64,000 nt of DNA from contig JBAZOQ010000001.1 of the NCBI GenBank assembly GCA_041648595.1, positions 82,242 through 146,241 of the forward strand. Reading direction: 5' to 3'. Below are positions 3,776-49,820 of the stretch, in pieces. A program made the position numbers and the translations under genes. The notes under the pieces were generated by a model. That model was not told where the DNA came from, did no database searches, and saw only the letters and a program-made list of their open reading frames with translations. Origin of the DNA: Minisyncoccota bacterium (GTDB taxonomy: Bacteria; Patescibacteriota; Minisyncoccia; Phycocordibacterales; UBA9973). The number at the start of each line of letters is the position of its first letter. The stretch's first letter is position 1.

Positions 3776-3818
3776 GTTTCTATTCTAACATAACTTATGA
3801 TATATTTAATTAATGGGT

Positions 3819-3933
3819 CCCGTTAGAAGCCGCGGTCACGGTGTATAGCGGGAAACAAAGAAAATTATTTATTTAAGTTAATATTAGTAGGCGTAATTTA
3901 TGTAAAAATAGACCGCGACCTGCTTCTAACGGG
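3819..3933. mobile_element. MITE-like element copy A with 11-12 bp perfect terminal inverted repeats TCCCGTTAGAAG / CTTCTAACGGGA, flanked by the 5-bp direct repeat ATGGG (3813-3817 and 3934-3938)
   Basis: The structure is ATGGG t cccgttagaag ccgcggtc acggtgtatagcggga ... gaccgcgacctg cttctaacggg ATGGG. The right-hand ATG is the mreB start codon. The extended arms (ccgcggtc/gaccgcg) are also complementary. Confidence 0.6.
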
Positions 3934-4947
3934 ATGGGAATTTTTTCAAGAAAATTAGGCATAGACCTAGGCACAGCCAATACTTTGGTTTTTTTGCCTG
4001 GTAAGGGAATAGTATTAAATGAACCTTCAGTTGTAGCAGTTTCAGAACAAGACAATAAGATTCTAGCTATTGGTTTTGAGGCTAAAGATATGATAGGAAA
4101 AACACCAGATTCAATAATTACTTATTGTCCTATGAAAGATGGTGTTATTGCAGATTATAGAGTCACAGAAGCAATGCTTCATTATTTTATAAATAAAGCA
4201 TTGGGAAAATTTAATTTTTTTAAACCAGATGTGATGATTTCAGTACCAGCTGGTGTCACCTCAACAGAGAGAAGAGCTGTAGTAGAAGCAGCAATACGTG
4301 CTGGAGCTAGAAATGCTTATGTAGTTAAAGAGCCGATACTTGCAGCAATTGGTGCTGGTATTCCTATTTATGAATCAAAAGGACATATGGTGGTAGATAT
4401 CGGTGGAGGAACTACCGATGTTGCTGTTATTTCATTGGGAGGAATTGTTGCTTCTACTTCTGTTAAATGTGCTGGAAATAAAATTGATCAAGCTATAGCT
4501 GATTATATTAAAAAAACTTTTAATTTGGCTATAGGAGACAGAACAGCCGAAGAAGTAAAAATAAAAATTGGAGCAGCTGTTCCACTTGAAGAAGAACTTA
4601 GGGTTACAATAAAAGGAAGAGATTTTATTCAAGGGTTGCCAAGATCTGCTCAAGTGGGAACCAATGAAATAGTGAAAGCAATAGATGGAGAATTAAAACA
4701 GATAATAAAAGCTATAAAAGATGTATTACAAGAAACTCCACCAGAACTTGCTTCTGATATTATGGATTATGGAATTATTATGACAGGAGGGACGTCTCAG
4801 TTGCGTAATTTAACAGATTTAGTTTATAGAAAAACTGGAGTAAAAGCAACATTAGCCGATGAATCTATTTTTTGTGTAGTAAAAGGGACAGGCGTAGCAT
4901 TAGAGCATCTAGATGTATATAAAAAAACAGTTTTAAGTAAAAAATAG
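3934..4947 (+). CDS. mreB: rod shape-determining protein MreB (actin-like ATPase)
   Basis: The N-terminal sequence MGIFSRKLGIDLGTANTLVF..., an actin-fold phosphate-1 motif, and DIGGGTTD are present within 337 aa. Confidence 0.9.
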   Translation: MGIFSRKLGIDLGTANTLVFLPGKGIVLNEPSVVAVSEQDNKILAIGFEAKDMIGKTPDSIITYCPMKDGVIADYRVTEAMLHYFINKALGKFNFFKPDVMISVPAGVTSTERRAVVEAAIRAGARNAYVVKEPILAAIGAGIPIYESKGHMVVDIGGGTTDVAVISLGGIVASTSVKCAGNKIDQAIADYIKKTFNLAIGDRTAEEVKIKIGAAVPLEEELRVTIKGRDFIQGLPRSAQVGTNEIVKAIDGELKQIIKAIKDVLQETPPELASDIMDYGIIMTGGTSQLRNLTDLVYRKTGVKATLADESIFCVVKGTGVALEHLDVYKKTVLSKK

Positions 4948-4952
4948 AATTT

Positions 4953-5690
4953 ATGATTCTAGAACATTTAGATAAAAATAATTTACATCATGCATATTTG
5001 ATAGAAGGTAGAAAAGAGGATATTGTGCCAGATATTTTTGAATTTTTAAAAGATTTAAAAATAAATACATCCAACAATCCTGATTTTTATCATATGTCTT
5101 TTGATACATTTAAAATTGAGGATGCTCATAATTTAAAATCTATACAATATGAAAAAAGTTTTTCTTTGGGCAAAAAAATAATTTTGATTTCAGCTAATAA
5201 TTTTTTGTTAGAAGCACAAAATACTTTACTAAAAATTTTTGAAGAACCAATAGAAAATACGCATTTCTTTTTAATTGTGCCAAATAAAAATATTTTGTTA
5301 AAGACCTTACTCTCTAGATTTTATTTAATTCAAACTAAGTCAGACTTAGAAGAAGAATTGAAAGAAGCAGAAAAATTTATTTCAATGCCGTTGAGAAATA
5401 GATTAGACTATATTAAAGAATTTTTGATAGAAGAAGTCCCGACCGAAGTCGGGATCCCGACAGAGGTCGGGAAAGATATATTACAAGATTCTGTTCGTGC
5501 AAAAGCATTAAGGTTTCTCAATGCATTAGAAACTGTGCTTCACCACAGGGTAGCCCTGTGTAATTACACAGGGCTACCCTGTGGTGGTATTTTTGCTCAT
5601 ATTTTTAAAGTCCGTGAATTTATCAATCAACCTGGTTCATCAATAAAAAGCTTGATGGAATCTTTAGCACTAAAAATACCAAGTTTTTAA
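4953..5690 (+). CDS. holB: DNA polymerase III delta-prime-like subunit (HolB-like, degenerate, no P-loop)
   Basis: HHAYLIEG...NTLLKIFEEP...HFFLIV resembles the clamp-loader delta' fold, and a bona fide dnaX lies elsewhere in the window. It contains two in-frame GC-rich hairpin/palindrome insertions. Confidence 0.55.
   Translation: MILEHLDKNNLHHAYLIEGRKEDIVPDIFEFLKDLKINTSNNPDFYHMSFDTFKIEDAHNLKSIQYEKSFSLGKKIILISANNFLLEAQNTLLKIFEEPIENTHFFLIVPNKNILLKTLLSRFYLIQTKSDLEEELKEAEKFISMPLRNRLDYIKEFLIEEVPTEVGIPTEVGKDILQDSVRAKALRFLNALETVLHHRVALCNYTGLPCGGIFAHIFKVREFINQPGSSIKSLMESLALKIPSF
5436..5472. repeat. Two adjacent small GC hairpins in-frame in the holB-like gene (encode EVPTEVGIPTEVGK)
   Basis: The sequences cccgac cgaa gtcggg and tcccgac aga ggtcggga form a tandem peptide repeat PTEVG-IPTEVG. 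Confidence 0.6.
5541..5587. repeat. Perfect ~46-bp GC-rich palindrome in-frame in the holB-like gene (encodes HHRVALCNYTGLPCGG)
   Basis: The sequence caccacagggtagccctgtgtaat tacacagggctaccctgtggtg has ~23-bp perfect arms. Confidence 0.75.
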
Positions 5691-5721
5691 TTTTAATCAT
5701 AAAATGTTATGATATATAAAT

Positions 5722-6273
5722 ATGCAATATAATTTTTCAAATTTTAAGACAGAAATAAATAAAATAGCAGAATATTTAGGAAAAGAATATACTCAGCTTA
5801 ATATTGGCCGAGCATCACCTATGATACTCGATAGTGTGTCTGTAGAATCATATGGTTCACGTGTTCCATTGAAAAATATTGCTTCTGTTTCTATTGAAGA
5901 TCCGAAAACTTTACGTATTATAGCTTGGGATAAAAACCAAATTAAAGAAATTGAAAAAGCTATAGTATCCTCAAATTTAGGATTATCAGTTGCTGTAGAT
6001 GGTGGAGGCATTAGAGTTATTTTTCCACAATTGACTACTGATACAAGGCAAACACTTGTAAAAGTATTAAAAGAAAAATTAGAAGAAAGTAGAATAACAG
6101 TACGTAAAGAACGTGAAAGAATTTGGGATGAAGTTCAAAAATTAGAGAAAGAAGGGAAGATGACTGAAGATGAAAAATTTAGAGCAAAAGAAGATTTGCA
6201 AAAAGTAATAGATGAAATAAATCAAAAATTGGAAGATATTTTTGAAAAAAAAGAAAAAGAGGTATTGGGGTAG
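5722..6273 (+). CDS. frr: ribosome recycling factor
   Basis: The 183-aa protein starts MQYNF...IGRASPMILDSVSVESYGSRVPLKNIASVSIEDPKTLRI... and has a C-terminal charged coiled arm. Confidence 0.85.
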   Translation: MQYNFSNFKTEINKIAEYLGKEYTQLNIGRASPMILDSVSVESYGSRVPLKNIASVSIEDPKTLRIIAWDKNQIKEIEKAIVSSNLGLSVAVDGGGIRVIFPQLTTDTRQTLVKVLKEKLEESRITVRKERERIWDEVQKLEKEGKMTEDEKFRAKEDLQKVIDEINQKLEDIFEKKEKEVLG

Positions 6274-15802: not shown

Positions 15803-18058
15803 TTATTCTATTTTAGATAACTTATGTGGATTATGATTTGGACAGGATTTGTCACTACATCTATCAGGAATAGTTTTTGTGCCTTCCATCATTAATGATC
15901 CACACTTATTACATAATTTACCTGTAGGTTTTGCTTTTATTGCATATTTACAATCAGGATAATTTGAACAAGAATAAAATATACCAAAACGTCCTCTTCT
16001 TTCACTTATATCTCCTTTTTTACATACAGGACAAATGACGCCGGTTCTTTTTTTAGCCTCTTCAGCTTCATCTTTTTTAATAAATTTACATTTTGGATAA
16101 CGTGAACAAGAGATAAAAGTACCTGTTCCATCACGTCTTTCTTTTATAATCAATTTACCACCACCTTGTTTTCCTTTTTTCTCTCCACATTCAGGGCACA
16201 ATTCTCCAGTTTCTTTAGGTCCTTCCAGTTCTGTTCCATCTAATCTTAATGCTCCATCACAATCTGGATATTTAATACAAGAATAAAATTTACCACCACG
16301 AGAAAGTTTTATAATCATTTTATCTCCACATTTTGGGCATTTCATATTTTCTGGTGCTTCTCCTAGGTTTGTCGCTTTCTCTAATTTCTCTTTTATTTTT
16401 ATTTCTTTTGAAAATGGTCCATAAAAATCTTTTAATGTTTTCTCGTATTCACGTTCACCGCGTGATATTTCATCTAATTCATCTTCCATTTCTGCTGTAA
16501 ATGTATCAGAAATATAATTTGCAAAATGTGTTTCTAAAAATAGAGACACAACTTCACCAACATCAGTAGGGAATAGAGTTTTATTTTCTTTTCTTACGTA
16601 TTCACGATCTTCTAGCGTCTTCATTATGGAAGCATAAGTAGATGGTCTACCTATATCACGAGCTTCCAATTCTTTAATAAGGCCAGCCTCACTATATCTA
16701 TTTGGTGGTTCTGTAAATTTTTCTTCTTTTATTAAATTTAGTAATTTTAATTTTTCTCCAATTTTCACTTCTGGTAATTCTATGTCTTCTCCTCTACTAT
16801 CCTTCTCAACTTCCAACCATCCTCTAAAAAGAATTCTTGAACCAGTAGCTGTAAAGTCTGGAAATTCAAATTCTGCGGAAGCCTTGCTTCCGCGAGTACG
16901 CGGAAGCAAGGCTTCCGCAGAAATATTTGCACTTATTTTTGTTTTTAATAATCTTGCATCAGTCATTTGAGATGAGACAGTACGTTCCCAAATCAATTTA
17001 TAAAGTCTCTGTTGTTCGTCGGTACCCGCTCCAAGATTTTCTATATGAGTCGGACGAATTGCTTCGTGTGCTTCTTGTGCATTTTTAGATTTAGTTTTAT
17101 ATATTTTAGCTTCTGCATAATTTTTTCCATATTTTTTTTTAACAAGAGAAATGATTTGGGTTTGTGCTACTGCGGATAGGTTTGTACTATCTGTTCGCAT
17201 ATATGTAATATGTCCAGCTTCATAAAGTTTTTGTGCTAATTGCATTGTTTTTGAAGGAGAATAACCAAGTCGTGAACTTGCTGTTTGTTGTAATGTAGAA
17301 GTAGTAAATGGTGCACGAGGTGTTCGTTTTTGTTCTGATTCTTTTACTCCAGTTACTAACCAATCTCCATTTTTTCCTTCTTCTAATATTTTTTCAACTA
17401 AATCTTTTTCTCTTGGTTCCTTGGAACAATTTAATGTTATCTTTGCTTTTTTGAGTGTTTCAAAAAGACCCAAAAGTTTCCAATATTGTTCAGGAATAAA
17501 AGCACGGATTTCTCTTTCGCGTTCCATTATTATACGAAGTGCAGGGGATTGGACTCTTCCTGCAGAGAGCCCATAACGTACTTTTTTCCAAATAAGTCCT
17601 GAAAGATCATATCCTACAAGTCTATCCAAAACTCGTCTCGCTTCTTGAGCTTTTCTTAAGTTTGTATCAATTTCTCTTGGATTTTTTAATGCTTCAATAA
17701 CTGCTTCTTTTGTTATTTCATAAAAAGCTACACGCTTTATTGGTGCCTTTACTTTTTTATCTTTTTTTAATAGTTCTTCTATGTGCCATGCTATAGCTTC
17801 TCCTTCACGATCAGGGTCTGTTGCTAATAAAATTTCTGTTGCTTTTTCTCCAAGTGTTTGAAGTTCATGAACAACTTTTTCTTTACCACGAGAAATCTCA
17901 TAATGTGGTATAAAGCCACCTTCTATGTCTATTGCTGTTTTATTTGATTTAGGTAAATCACGAATATGTCCAATAGAAGCACGTACTGTGTACGCACCTT
18001 CTAAATATTTTTCTATAGTTTTTGCTTTTGATGGTGACTCAACAATAAGTAATTTCAT
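15803..18058 (-). CDS. topA: DNA topoisomerase I with C-terminal zinc-ribbon repeats
   Basis: A Toprim N-terminus (MKLLIVESPSKAKTIEKYL), the type IA core, and multiple C-terminal CxxC...CxxC zinc ribbons are present. It contains an in-frame 48-bp palindrome. Confidence 0.9.
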   Translation of the reverse strand: MKLLIVESPSKAKTIEKYLEGAYTVRASIGHIRDLPKSNKTAIDIEGGFIPHYEISRGKEKVVHELQTLGEKATEILLATDPDREGEAIAWHIEELLKKDKKVKAPIKRVAFYEITKEAVIEALKNPREIDTNLRKAQEARRVLDRLVGYDLSGLIWKKVRYGLSAGRVQSPALRIIMEREREIRAFIPEQYWKLLGLFETLKKAKITLNCSKEPREKDLVEKILEEGKNGDWLVTGVKESEQKRTPRAPFTTSTLQQTASSRLGYSPSKTMQLAQKLYEAGHITYMRTDSTNLSAVAQTQIISLVKKKYGKNYAEAKIYKTKSKNAQEAHEAIRPTHIENLGAGTDEQQRLYKLIWERTVSSQMTDARLLKTKISANISAEALLPRTRGSKASAEFEFPDFTATGSRILFRGWLEVEKDSRGEDIELPEVKIGEKLKLLNLIKEEKFTEPPNRYSEAGLIKELEARDIGRPSTYASIMKTLEDREYVRKENKTLFPTDVGEVVSLFLETHFANYISDTFTAEMEDELDEISRGEREYEKTLKDFYGPFSKEIKIKEKLEKATNLGEAPENMKCPKCGDKMIIKLSRGGKFYSCIKYPDCDGALRLDGTELEGPKETGELCPECGEKKGKQGGGKLIIKERRDGTGTFISCSRYPKCKFIKKDEAEEAKKRTGVICPVCKKGDISERRGRFGIFYSCSNYPDCKYAIKAKPTGKLCNKCGSLMMEGTKTIPDRCSDKSCPNHNPHKLSKIE
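16873..16920. repeat. Perfect 48-bp GC-rich palindrome in-frame inside topA
   Basis: The sequence ctgcggaagccttgcttccgcg agta cgcggaagcaaggcttccgcag has 22-bp perfect arms. It encodes ...AEALLPRTRGSKASAE... on the topA strand, and nearly the same peptide on the other strand (spurious ORF 16782..16970). Confidence 0.8.
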
Positions 18059-22479: not shown

Positions 22480-22572
22480 AAAGGAATTTCAAAAAATTTC
22501 TGAGCCTTCGCCCTCGGAGTCCGTGAGGACAGGGGACCCACGACTCTTGAAATTCTTTAAATTCCTTTTTAT
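22480..22572. repeat. Palindromic GC-core element family C, copy 1 (intergenic, dus-dnaX)
   Basis: The sequence is taaaaaggaatttcaaaaaatttctgagccttcgccctcggagtccgtgaggacaggggacccacgactcttgaaattctttaaattccttttta. The AT-rich arms are mutually complementary, and the conserved GC core is shared with copies at ~40901..41002 (reverse) and ~49711..49820. Confidence 0.75.
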
Positions 22573-28829: not shown

Positions 28830-28880
28830 AAAGTATTATTTTGTTTTTTTTAATAAATACAGTATAATATTAAGATGAAT

Positions 28881-28979
28881 CCCGTTAGAAGTTAACTATG
28901 CGGGATTGATATTTTAATGATAATCAAGTTATATAATATTATTTATAATTAATGTAATATTAGTATAACTTCTAACGGG
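28881..28979. mobile_element. MITE-like element copy B with the same CCCGTTAGAAG / CTTCTAACGGG terminal inverted repeats, flanked by the 5-bp direct repeat ATGAA (28875-28879 and 28980-28984)
   Basis: The structure is ATGAA t cccgttagaagtta actatgcggga ... taacttctaacggg ATGAA. The right-hand ATG is the start of ORF 28980..29201. It shares the internal tat(a)gcggga motif with copy A. Confidence 0.6.
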
Positions 28980-40900: not shown

Positions 40901-41002
40901 AGACTCCCTGAAATTAAAAAATTTTAAGAGTCGTGGGTTCCCTGTCCTTATGACTCCGAGGGCGAAGGCTCAGAAATTTTTTGAATTTCTGGGAGTCTAT
41001 TA
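40901..41002. repeat. Palindromic GC-core element family C, copy 2 (reverse orientation); supplies the last 14 codons and stop of scpA
   Basis: The sequence agactccctgaaattaaaaaattttaagagtcgtgggttccctgtccttatgactccgagggcgaaggctcagaaattttttgaatttctgggagtct has complementary arms. The scpA C-terminus PEIQKISEPSPSES* is read from the element. Confidence 0.75.
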
Positions 41003-42459: not shown

Positions 42460-42485
42460 ACTTATATATTTATATTTTAAAATTT

Positions 42486-42518
42486 CAGCCTGAGGCTGAT
42501 CCGCCTTTGGCGGAAAAT
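42486..42518. repeat. GC-rich double hairpin, family D copy 2 (intergenic)
   Basis: The sequence cagcctgaggctg atccgcctttggcggaaaa shares gatccgccYttggcggaaaa with the priA-internal copy at 2329..2360. Confidence 0.7.
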
Positions 42519-42519
42519 T

Positions 42520-49710: not shown

Positions 49711-49820
49711 TGCAAGAGCAAAAACAAGAAATCAAAAATTTCTGAGCCTTCGCCCTCGGAGTCCGTGAGGACAGGGAACCAACACGACTCTTAAAATTTT
49801 TATTTCTTGTTTTTGCTCTC
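49711..49820. repeat. Palindromic GC-core element family C, copy 3; the right arm overlaps the TAG stop of the ABC-F gene
   Basis: The sequence is gagcaaaaacaagaaatcaaaaatttctgagccttcgccctcggagtccgtgaggacagggaaccaacacgactcttaaaatttttatttcttgtttttgctc, with complementary AT-rich arms. Confidence 0.75.

Follow-up and report, generated by a model that had tools for sequence, protein, structure and literature searches.

MITEs are generally shorter than 200 bp and may reach up to about 400 bp, and in-frame fusions between repeats and genes have been mentioned (PMC3184786). Among the bacterial MITEs, Correia/NEMIS of Neisseria, the enterobacterial ERIC/IRU, the pneumococcal RUP, and MITEAba12 are the named comparators of the family treated here. 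Rickettsia palindromic elements (RPE) are mobile palindromes in reduced genomes which persist in gene space because the gene is not destroyed by their insertion, and their sequence is translated into the host protein. Palindrome elements derived from IS200/IS605 and the REP/RAYT systems are hairpin-dependent and strand- and orientation-specific, with a folded single-stranded DNA substrate and a short asymmetric target; they make no target duplication, and they have subterminal hairpins instead of perfect inverted repeats at the termini. The hop in T4 gene 60, the ribosome shunt of CaMV, and IStrons render an insertion harmless by way of ribosomes or RNA processing.

The stretch of DNA analysed here (the window, 64 kb) contains two copies of a non-autonomous, MITE-like hairpin family which is widespread in Patescibacteria. 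The motif CCCGTTAGAAG occurs exactly four times in the window, arranged as two inverted pairs (3819-3829/3923-3933 and 28881-28891/28969-28979), where 0.33 occurrences are expected by chance and four or more were found in 0 of 100 shuffles. A flanking T/A extends the terminal repeat to a perfect 12 bp (Table 1). Long hairpins are predicted for both copies (folding z of -3.4 and -5.1), lengthened by additional arm pairing (ccgcggtc/gaccgcg). Each copy is flanked by a direct repeat, ATGGG and ATGAA, respectively, the right-hand one of which is the start codon of the host gene. These features had been predicted from the sequence alone. The perfect terminal inverted repeats in two copies held and were refined from 11-12 bp to 12 bp, as did the paired extended arms and the direct repeats with the right copy as initiation codon. 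The predicted duplication of 5 bp is better described as one of 4 bp (TGGG and TGAA), the element itself supplying its terminal A as the A of the right ATG.

Table 1. Positions of the two element copies, their flanks, and their host genes in the window.
Feature	Position	Strand	Remark
mreB extended -10 element TGATATATT	3798..3806	+	6 nt 5' of left ATG
Left target copy ATGGG	3813..3817	+	start codon that mreB had before the insertion, with the next 2 nt; remains promoter-proximal
Mini-ORF MGPVRSRGHGV plus stop	3813..3848	+	opened by the retained left ATG
Whole element, copy 1	3818..3934		117 nt
Left terminal inverted repeat TCCCGTTAGAAG, copy 1	3818..3829	+	invariant in 127 copies
Interior, copy 1	3830..3922	+	GC-rich stem arms ccgcggtcacgg / gaccgcgacctg, AT-rich apical region; GCGGGA (3848-3853) and ATGTAA start-stop; no relay ORF
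Right terminal inverted repeat CTTCTAACGGGA, copy 1	3923..3934	+	base 3934 doubles as the first base of the mreB ATG
Right ATGGG repeat	3934..3938
mreB host gene	3934..4947	+	TGGG 3935-3938 is the right target copy
-10 hexamer TATAAT	28863..28868	+	6 nt 5' of left ATG of copy 2
Left target copy ATGAA	28875..28879	+	opens mini-ORF 28875-28895 (MNPVRS plus stop)
Whole element, copy 2	28880..28980		101 nt
Left terminal inverted repeat, copy 2	28880..28891	+
Interior, copy 2	28892..28968	+	AT-rich; GCGGGA 28900-28905 and ATGTAA start-stop; no relay ORF
Right terminal inverted repeat, copy 2	28969..28980	+	final base serves as the A of the host start codon ATG
Right ATGAA repeat	28980..28984
Host gene of copy 2	28980..29201	+	encodes a predicted small membrane protein (73 aa); lies downstream of PBP2

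The ATG at 3934 opens a 337-aa MreB reading frame, and the orthologues begin with the same residues. The order TGnTATATT, then 6-7 nt, then ATG is also found in about 78 empty orthologous mreB loci, and this spacing between -10 element and left ATG is typical of a promoter for leaderless mRNA. At the second site the TATAAT promoter is likewise present at the empty site in three relatives (L200-L202), and the orthologous 73-aa gene was called in these and in L209 and L210.

Three comparisons with empty sites demonstrate clean insertion polymorphism. About 78 of the 80 orthologous mreB loci lack the element and read ...TATATTnnnnnnATGGGAATTTTTTC. At frr, about 29 loci and the window itself are without the element, which is present at the identical point in two others (L168, L173). 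The second window site is empty in L200-L202, with 93% identity in PBP2, and in L206-L210. For both copies in the window the empty-site test yielded a locus corresponding to the window minus the element and one repeat. The mobility of the element rests on this comparative evidence alone, and the mobilising enzyme is unidentified.

The exact terminal pair was found in more than 118 places, almost all of them labelled Patescibacteria. The census, seeded by exact termini, comprises 127 copies; the perfect 12-bp TCCCGTTAGAAG/CTTCTAACGGGA pair is shared by both window copies and 125 others. As the seeds were picked by exact termini, part of the observed terminus conservation is due to ascertainment. 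Members are about 70-135 nt long, with a few variants of 275-312 nt, and at least four occur in single MAGs (L027/L033, CAZLXA01 contigs), compared to two in the window. The interiors, of up to 110 nt, contain no transposase gene and hold only mini-ORFs of 3-43 codons, the peptides of which are unconserved and rich in K, N, and I. The interiors have diverged into 121 clusters among 130 copies, by which recent horizontal spread was rejected as an explanation of the identical termini. Changes in the termini were compensatory in 40 cases versus 14 affecting one arm, which indicates that pairing of the terminal hairpin is under constraint. An internal motif, GGGA(G/A)/TAACGGGA, is one-sided (23 of 130 copies versus 3.75 expected). 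Relative to the gene, 73 elements lie in the canonical orientation and 2 are inverted (97%). The host genes are functionally unrelated housekeeping genes, and their recurrence is about equal to chance expectation, so that no hot-spot genes were seen.

The family thus meets the MITE criteria of small size, terminal inverted repeats, target duplication, absence of an internal transposase, multiple copies, and presence/absence polymorphism. No autonomous partner or transposase bounded by the termini of the family was found in the 1.17 Mb of fetched loci, which are not whole genomes; long pairs of terminal repeats in these data were considered as autonomous elements and rejected, since all were mis-pairings. 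Searches of viral contigs gave 0 matches, revealing neither carriage by phages nor an autonomous partner. Rfam yielded no match at gathering thresholds and noise alone at E up to 10. For other hairpin families of the same architecture one clear case was obtained (L049).

Insertion creates a short target duplication and in the overwhelming majority of cases falls on the TG of a start codon. The right junction forms ATG in 119 of 127 copies, and 113 of these 119 open a reading frame of 50 codons or more, with a median of 217. For 17 host proteins the Pfam match begins at residue 1-4, and the right ATG is therefore the native start. A perfect 5/5 repeat is present in 65 copies and a perfect 4/4 TGNN repeat in 72 of 119; in 34 of 119 the repeats are imperfect, with the reading frames nonetheless intact. 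The duplication is usually of 4 bp with the consensus TGRR, occasionally of 3 or 5 bp, and the repeat, ATG plus 0-3 nt, is not fixed in length. Such variation is unusual for one transposase and counts against the main explanation given below. The duplicated bases differ between copies and match the second codon of each host gene. A purine follows the TG at the first position in 93% and at the second in 97% of targets; for ordinary starts the corresponding values are 65% and 55% (p 1.7e-7 and 1e-14). On the left, GTG, TTG, or CTG sometimes stands in place of ATG, and about 12% of copies have no start codon there; the right codon is always ATG.

From the availability of unoccupied ATGRR sites, 451 at starts and 881 in non-coding DNA, about 34% of copies would be predicted at starts, where about 90% were observed; in an unbiased sample of 250 kb, 5 of 5 copies were at gene starts. 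TANNNT is found 4-9 nt before the left ATG in 41 of 85 copies versus 11% of random ATGs, and about half of the copies are located at leaderless-type promoters. Operon-internal copies amount to 59 of 119, many of them on ATGA or GTGA overlaps. A targeting restricted to transcription start sites or open promoter complexes was rejected, as half of the copies are operon-internal. Motifs resembling Shine-Dalgarno sequences occur at 4-5% of host starts.

About 55% of the copies carry a small relay ORF, whose stop codon, a TAA, is part of the right terminus and precedes the host ATG by 4 nt. It was counted in 63 of 123 real elements versus 20 flipped ones and 25.6 +/- 4.2 shuffled ones (z about 9), and is frame- and orientation-specific. 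By frame, 57 were observed versus 13 and 11 in the others, the expectation with arms held fixed being 23-25 +/- 3.6. It is missing from about 45% of copies, including both in the window. GGGA(G/A)/TAACGGGA was considered as a Shine-Dalgarno sequence for the relay ORF and rejected, as it is not enriched there (7/60 versus 10%). The mini-ORFs opened by the left ATG are distributed 40/30/29 over the frames, so that neither their frame nor the place of their stop shows a signal of design. None of them is fused in frame to the host gene, and the frame that would fuse to the host is at or below expectation. A chain from left ORF to relay ORF is merely suggestive (38% versus 18 +/- 8%). No asymmetry between sense and antisense folding was detected (67 versus 62, p 0.29), and a selection for sense-strand RNA structure via G.U asymmetry is accordingly unsupported. 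The start region is predicted to be about 80% paired, with equal accessibility for natural and flipped elements; start-codon accessibility as a cause of the orientation bias is accordingly unsupported.

The original prediction had read the window copies as a MITE-like mobile insertion with, as one of two options, a preference for initiation regions. Both parts were supported, the first by the clade-wide census and the empty orthologous loci, the second by an ATGNN...ATGNN architecture in about 90% of copies throughout the clade. Copies lacking flanking repeats and association with start codons would have spoken against it; the census shows both features. The suggestion that the element supplies a ribosome-binding site failed, as it carries no Shine-Dalgarno site. 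In refined form, its contribution to the 5' end of the gene is the A of ATG, plus, in the part of the family which does not include the window copies, the small ORF.

The element ends in ...GGGA, and its last base together with the duplicated TG remakes an ATG in front of an untouched reading frame. The left copy retains the original start codon in its native context, which is a leaderless-type promoter 6-7 nt upstream or, in ATGA overlaps, the stop codon of the preceding gene. With the left context retained and the right ATG remade, both neighbouring genes therefore remain intact. Taken as a whole, these data are likely to be best explained by a mobile hairpin with start-directed insertion whose host genes continue to be translated from upstream loading. 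Also counting against this explanation are the lack of an autonomous partner in the loci examined, the duplications without TG away from gene starts, the negative results on folding asymmetry and start accessibility, and the copies without a relay ORF or without a left start codon. Insertion would be intrinsically directed to start sites and orientation-specific, and would probably proceed via a folded single-strand hairpin intermediate recognised by an enzyme supplied in trans, which is unidentified. The hosts almost never use Shine-Dalgarno sequences, and translation of the host gene is inferred to be upheld by ribosomes loaded upstream, either at the retained left start or at the internal AT-rich relay ORF where it is present. 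These ribosomes would open the hairpin as they translate through its 3' arm, terminate at the UAA in the right terminus, and start again at the host AUG 4 nt further on, a step for which there is no experimental test. The window copies would have to rely on their left mini-ORFs only. A bolder reading sees in the family a new kind of gene-sparing parasite, suited to bacteria whose translation does without Shine-Dalgarno sites, that actively homes to starts, rebuilds the ATG, and carries its own relay, with fixed orientation and hairpin dependence, including GTG/TTG starts and ATGA overlaps, so that essential genes stay translated; the balance of evidence tips slightly against going so far.

The most serious rival, which remains possible, is that the same mobile element does not sense start sites at all, having merely a weak sequence bias in the form of a 4-bp duplication that ends in purines, and that the register is made entirely later by purifying selection in gene-dense genomes, together with a slower loss of those copies that could not be deleted imprecisely without ruining an essential start codon. 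In its favour, the handful of copies off gene starts have 4-bp duplications without TG (TATG, TAAG, AAAA, CGAA), and selection rather than the enzyme may therefore account for the TG in the consensus. In addition the design of the element leaves exactly one harmless register per gene, the genomes are compact (a crude ORF mask leaves about 15% of the DNA as non-coding), and the orientation bias could be selected via the relay ORF. Against it, non-coding positions exceed the single permissive start register roughly 100 to 1, and non-coding ATGRR outnumber start ATGRR 2 to 1, yet about 90% of copies are at starts. Moreover, insertions a few nucleotides upstream of a start are rare despite a nearly equivalent transcript, and the predicted accessibility of the start is unchanged when the element is flipped.

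Removal or skipping of the element at the RNA level appears very unlikely. This could be an intron-like excision, processing by RNase III or another nuclease giving a leaderless mRNA from the right AUG, or a ribosome hop from left AUG to right AUG across the base of the hairpin. In its favour, the foot of a very stable stem brings two identical 5-nt repeats next to each other, about half of the copies have their left AUG where transcription of a leaderless mRNA would start, and the pairing of the start region to about 80% implies that some assistance is needed. However, the roughly one quarter of copies with imperfect repeats and the roughly 12% without a left start codon retain long, intact reading frames; in the operon-internal half of the copies the left AUG does not mark a 5' end; and neither a ribozyme or known RNA family match nor a strand asymmetry in folding was found. 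A vertically inherited, non-mobile cis-regulatory leader RNA, be it a riboswitch, a thermosensor, or a protein-binding leader, would account for conserved termini, a helix kept by compensatory changes, and a position always 5' of a reading frame. This alternative, which the original prediction had also raised, is all but excluded because the orthologous sites are empty, at mreB and frr as well as in the closest relatives at the second site. The host genes are unrelated, the duplications match the second codon of each gene, and Rfam gave no match; neither orthologous conservation nor a functional class of genes, as expected for such leaders, is met.

As far as the searchable literature shows, this start-codon-inserting hairpin family is abundant and undescribed; no relevant publication was found there on the motif, on CPR MITEs, on start-codon MITEs, or on leaderless genes of Patescibacteria. 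It spans much of the Patescibacteria, whose tiny, gene-dense genomes are ones where mobile DNA was thought to be scarce, and it suggests a route by which a transposable element may enter compact genomes, using the one position per gene where its end restores the start. Colonising copies leave the upstream stop codon or leaderless promoter intact. The family offers an entry point to start-codon choice in CPR, where Shine-Dalgarno-like motifs are so infrequent and leaderless-type promoters common, and to the enzyme behind a nucleotide-precise, orientation-specific insertion at start codons. For annotation it entails mis-called gene starts and spurious mini-ORFs in CPR genomes, and element copies are of practical use as strain-level markers.

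Compared with known systems, the design may be summarised as a MITE-like, start-codon-homing, gene-sparing element with an unidentified mobilising enzyme. Integron attC sites (R'' RYYYAAC ... R' GTTRRRY, recombination at G|TT) were rejected: GTTAGAA/TTCTAAC is present in the opposite order, GTTAGAA being at the 5' end on both strands, and the junctions fall outside GTTAGAA/TTCTAAC. With bypass and shunt devices the family shares matched sequences around a stable hairpin and a short ORF ending just before a structure or start. In contrast to these, the insertion lies upstream of the reading frame, the left repeat is dispensable in a minority, and the inferred mechanism would be ordinary termination-reinitiation, on which there are no experimental data. 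A translational bypass element of the T4 gene 60 or mitochondrial byp type was rejected, the insertion being upstream of the ORF and matching codons not obligatory. Elements of the IS200/IS605 and REP type would require a fixed tetra- or pentanucleotide, no duplication, and subterminal hairpins, none of which is met; here the duplicated bases vary between copies and match the host gene, the inverted repeats form the very ends, and a single hairpin spans the element. What the family would share with these elements is hairpin dependence and specificity of strand and orientation beside a short asymmetric target. To our knowledge no Y1 transposase is linked to the family. The element resembles RPE as a palindromic mobile repeat of reduced genomes whose insertion leaves the gene undestroyed, but unlike RPE it stays outside the reading frame. 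Neisseria REP2 and Borrelia plasmid repeats are similar in lying immediately upstream of genes, containing an ATG, and having internal stem-loops (PMC3184786); they carry promoter, ribosome-binding site, and ATG, whereas the present element lacks both promoter and Shine-Dalgarno sequence and contributes just the A of the start codon. Nor have these repeats been described as hairpins of inverted repeats with target duplications at pre-existing starts. The likeness to MITEs comprises a size below 200 bp, terminal inverted repeats, a short duplication, no transposase gene, multiple copies, long stem-loops, and frequent co-transcription with neighbouring genes (PMC3184786). Unlike MITEs, the family has no known parent IS, its termini are identical across many deep CPR lineages with unalignable interiors, its orientation is 97% fixed, more than half of its members carry an ORF stopping 4 nt before the host ATG, and about 90% sit in one exact start-codon register in which the terminal base rebuilds the ATG.

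The original prediction, two inverted-repeat elements flanked by ATGGG and ATGAA duplications at gene starts, held, and the sequence matches this description. Copy 1 lies at mreB, whose ATG takes its A from the last base of the right terminus, and copy 2 at a small ORF. The terminal 11-mer occurs four times in the window as compared with 0.33 expected, a number not reached in any of 100 shuffles, and no degenerate third copy was present when the window was searched for one. Both copies fold to long hairpins closed by their termini (-40.7 and -32.2 kcal/mol; z -3.4 and -5.1, respectively). Their interiors show a loose likeness with GCGGGA and an ATGTAA block in common, the ATGTAA being located about 30 nt upstream of the ATG of the host gene, i.e. 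the gene whose start codon carries the element.

Coordinates of the elements, promoters, and repeats. Positions refer to the window unless a locus fetched from another genome for comparison (L-number) is named.
Feature	Position	Remark
Copy 1, left repeat	3813-3817	ATGGG
Copy 1, left terminus	3818-3829	TCCCGTTAGAAG, 12 bp
Copy 1, interior	3830-3922	
Copy 1, right terminus	3923-3934	CTTCTAACGGGA
Copy 2, left repeat	28875-28879	ATGAA
Copy 2, termini	28880-28891 and 28969-28980	
Copy 2, host ATG	28980	opens 73-aa ORF
Left mini-ORFs	3813-3848; 28875-28895	copy 1; copy 2
-10 before ATG, examples	3798-3815; 28863-28877; 5700-5723	last one frr
Longer variants	L078 2985-3261; L118 6654-6930; L028 7264-7575	
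(A)CTTG class	L006 6900; L008 1064; L019 4812; L088 2229	
(A)CTTG class, mirrored	L005 7173-7239; L087 2907; L088 991	
GC-rich palindromes	2757-2802; 2330-2365; 5434-5474; 16871-16924; 42483-42519	first two in priA, third in holB-like gene
ATTTCTGAGCCTTCGCCCTCGGAGTCCGTGAGGACAGGG... repeat	22496-22553; 40932-40976; 49738-49793	second one reverse complement
CCCACAC-type palindrome	L203-L205, about 2396-2535	~135 nt, immediately 3' of PBP2 stop codon
CCCACAC-type element	L049 3176-3308, - strand	133 nt, TCCCACACATAACTTTCGC...GCGAAAGTTATGTGTGGGA
CCCACAC-type hairpin at mreB promoter	L125, L127, L131, L135, L137, L142, L145, L147, L148, L158, L182	~45 nt

The element is a mobile, non-autonomous hairpin. 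An empty-site test against relatives found element-free orthologous loci for both window copies, and insertion polymorphism was established by three independent comparisons, at mreB, at frr, and at the second window site. About 78 of 80 orthologous mreB loci are free of the insert and read TGnTATATT, 6-7 nt, then ATGGGAATTTTTTC..., which is the window sequence less the element and one repeat; the same point is occupied, with a different interior, in L184 and in L041, the latter from the first scan. At frr the site is empty in the window and in about 29 loci (TGnTAnAAT, 6-7 nt, ATGCAATAYAA). L168 and L173 both carry an element at exactly this position, each with the TGCAA duplication, and the nearest relatives of both are empty. 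At the second window site, downstream of the PBP2 gene, the closest relative (L200-L202, PBP2 93% identical) reads CAGTATAATATCAAT joined to ATGAGCAAAGTAAAAATAATTTTTATATTA without the element, and L206-L210 are empty too. In the relatives L150 (1080-1158) and L136 (1091-1159) an element was seen at the start codon of priA, the divergent neighbour of mreB, with mreB itself empty, so that neighbouring starts are hit independently.

A scan for the exact terminal pair, using one genome per species, yielded at least 118 stretches. By their deposited labels alone, nearly all are Patescibacteria: Nomura-, Kaiser-, Zambryski-, Jorgensen-, Moran-, Lipton-, Sungii-, Campbell-, Kerfeld-, and Levyi-bacteria, Paceibacterota, and many TPA bins under Saccharibacteria, with one small contig binned as Pirellulales as the exception. 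Scan loci and window together contain 127 exact copies. The right junction is ATG in 119 of them, and in 113 of these the ATG starts an ORF of 50 codons or more (median 217). Pfam matches beginning at residue 1-4 in 17 of 20 scanned host proteins show that the native N-terminus is at the right ATG. The host genes are unrelated housekeeping genes (trigger factor, SSB, TIM, L17, ParB, Pth, topoisomerase I, DHODH, RNase H, and others). Loci fetched by MreB, a 250 kb sample picked independently of element presence, contained five genuine copies, all at gene starts.

The right junction is nearly always GGGA/TG, and the left flank is ATG plus two nucleotides in 65 copies, plus one in 11, plus three in 8, and plus none in one. 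The 5-nt repeat is perfect in 65 copies and the TGNN repeat in 72. Many repeats which appear imperfect have GTG, CTG, or TTG plus NN at the left and ATG plus NN at the right; these are perfect 4-bp TGNN duplications in which a non-ATG start has exchanged its first base for the terminal A of the element. The element duplicates a short target at the TG of start codons and regenerates the ATG by its terminal A. The few copies away from ATG show 4-bp duplications (TATG, TAAG, AAAA, CGAA). Among targets, 93% have a purine at the first duplicated base after TG and 97% at the second; for ordinary starts of these loci the values are 65% and 55% (p 1.7e-7 and 1e-14, respectively). A -10-like TANNNT occurs 4-9 nt (mode 6-7) before the left ATG in 41 of 85 copies versus 11% of random ATGs, an arrangement of the leaderless type. 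Operon-internal copies (59 of 119) have the upstream ORF end at most 40 nt away, often in an ATGA or GTGA overlap, the upstream stop being kept by the left repeat and the downstream start by the right one. Insertion leaves the upstream stop or promoter preserved, and since half of the copies are operon-internal the target is start codons generally, not transcription starts alone. In a minority class a constant left flank (A)CTTG abuts the left terminus instead of a duplicated ATGRR, the right junction still being the host ATG; in L019 this ACTTG is located where a transcript from an upstream TATAAT would begin.

The genome of origin has a GC content of 29%. Among 28 unambiguous starts in the window 16 have a -10-like hexamer at 5-8 nt (mode 6) before the ATG and one has a Shine-Dalgarno (SD)-like motif; the respective figures for other loci are 29% and 5%. 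An extended -10 (TGnTAnAAT), 6-7 nt before the ATG, is conserved at orthologous mreB and frr loci. Promoter spacing and SD scarcity suggest that leaderless transcription and translation are pervasive in this lineage.

Variant termini change in both arms together (...GTTAGAAA/TTTCTAAC...; ...GTTAGAGA/TCTCTAAC...; CCCC.../...GGGG; TCAC.../...GTGA; GTACGAA/TTCGTAC in L173), with 40 compensatory versus 14 one-arm changes, some of the latter being mis-paired arms. The invariant core is CCCGTTAGA, and position 13 also co-varies. Arm complementarity is maintained, which indicates that one functional form is a folded single strand of DNA or RNA. One arm only carries a conserved YCTR before the right terminus, and read from this motif the orientation to the host gene is strongly biased, 73 canonical versus 2 inverted. 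At 16-32 nt from the 5' end, 23 of 130 copies contain an internal motif resembling TAACGGGA (3.75 expected), with no enrichment of its mirror image. Some longer variants, about 275-312 nt in length and with co-varying termini TCCCGTTAGAGAC...GTCTCTAACGGGA, were also seen at gene starts.

Other explanations were considered. A conserved leader RNA is refuted by the empty orthologous sites at mreB, frr, and the second window site. Recent horizontal spread as source of the identical termini is ruled out by the divergence of the interiors, which are almost unalignable between genomes (130 copies gave 121 clusters at 75% identity) and similar only within one MAG. Equilibrium RNA structure fails to explain the orientation bias, as sense and antisense folding are equal (67 vs 62, p 0.29) and an in silico flip of the element leaves the predicted accessibility of the start region unchanged, about 0.2 unpaired both ways. 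The position at starts could reflect a motif preference with loss of every intragenic insertion. From the unoccupied ATGRR sites (about 451 at predicted starts, 881 non-coding, and 6166 inside genes) this predicts about one third of copies at starts, as compared with about 90% observed, and the discrepancy is much larger under a weaker intrinsic motif, as suggested by the non-start copies. Start-directed insertion to some degree, or strongly preferential retention, is concluded to be necessary; the sensed feature has not been identified.

The right terminus contains a TAA 4 nt upstream of the host ATG (CTTC-TAA-CGGG-ATG). An ATG-initiated ORF ending at this TAA, here called relay ORF, is present in 63 of 123 copies; flipped interiors give 20 and shuffled ones 25.6 +/- 4.2 (maximum 38). 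When internal ATGs alone were counted, in 104 elements of 90-160 nt, the TAA frame had 57, as compared with 13 for the host-fusion frame and 11 for the +1 frame; the expectation for the TAA frame is 23-25 +/- 3.6 (maximum 35) if each arm is kept fixed over 25-30 nt. This enrichment of a stop-proximal small ORF is present in several interior families. Relay ORFs have a median length of about 20 codons, have their starts in the middle part of the hairpin, where pairing is lower (unpaired 0.50 vs 0.38), and encode unconserved, K/N/I-rich peptides with the ends ...TATCF, ...IAICF, or ...ISYF. SD-like motifs are not enriched before them (7/60 vs 10%), and the two inverted copies have versions of 4-5 codons. 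In 16 of 99 copies the ORF of the left ATG extends to the terminal TAA, and a separate relay ORF occurs in 39; that 15 of these 39 start -4 to +15 nt from the left ORF stop (18 +/- 8% expected) is merely suggestive. Neither window copy has a relay ORF; each carries only its left mini-ORF and the shared ATGTAA.

We infer that insertion would be start-directed and orientation-specific via a hairpin intermediate; the enzyme and the way of start-codon recognition are unidentified. By inference too, ribosomes would melt the 3' arm, and termination-reinitiation at UAA-CGGG-AUG would maintain host translation. Such relay-based translation does not account for copies that lack the relay ORF, the mreB copy of the window among them.

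Further repeats were observed alongside. Short GC-rich perfect palindromes are embedded in the AT-rich window sequence, at least three of them in frame within coding sequence: two in priA (e.g. AACTTAGAGGCCTTGCCTCC-GCTT-GGAGGCAAGGCCTCTAAGTT) and one in a holB-like gene, where a tandem pair of 18-nt hairpins (TCCCGAC-CGAA-GTCGGGA and TCCCGAC-AGAG-GTCGGGA) has TCCCG...CGGGA tips in common with the main element. These could represent a different type of in-frame palindromic insertion. A separate GC-rich repeat family, ATTTCTGAGCCTTCGCCCTCGGAGTCCGTGAGGACAGGG... (about 50 nt), has three copies in the window. Palindromic elements with CCCACAC-type arms were seen in several loci; the one in L049 has GTGAA and A/TGAA flanks at a gene start, i.e. 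the architecture of the main element with different arms, and the right arm of a short hairpin of this type adjoins the -10 of the mreB promoter.

No publication with the motif or on such elements in Patescibacteria (CPR) was found in the open-access literature searched. By structure the element fits the bacterial MITE definition (PMC3184786) in all criteria except a parent IS, none being known. Among described repeats at gene starts the nearest are Neisseria REP2 and those of Borrelia, which themselves carry promoter, RBS, and ATG and, unlike the element, are not inverted-repeat insertions with duplications. Compared with described MITEs, the exact start-codon register, the ATG regeneration, the fixed orientation, the relay ORF, and the ultraconserved termini across a superphylum are its own.
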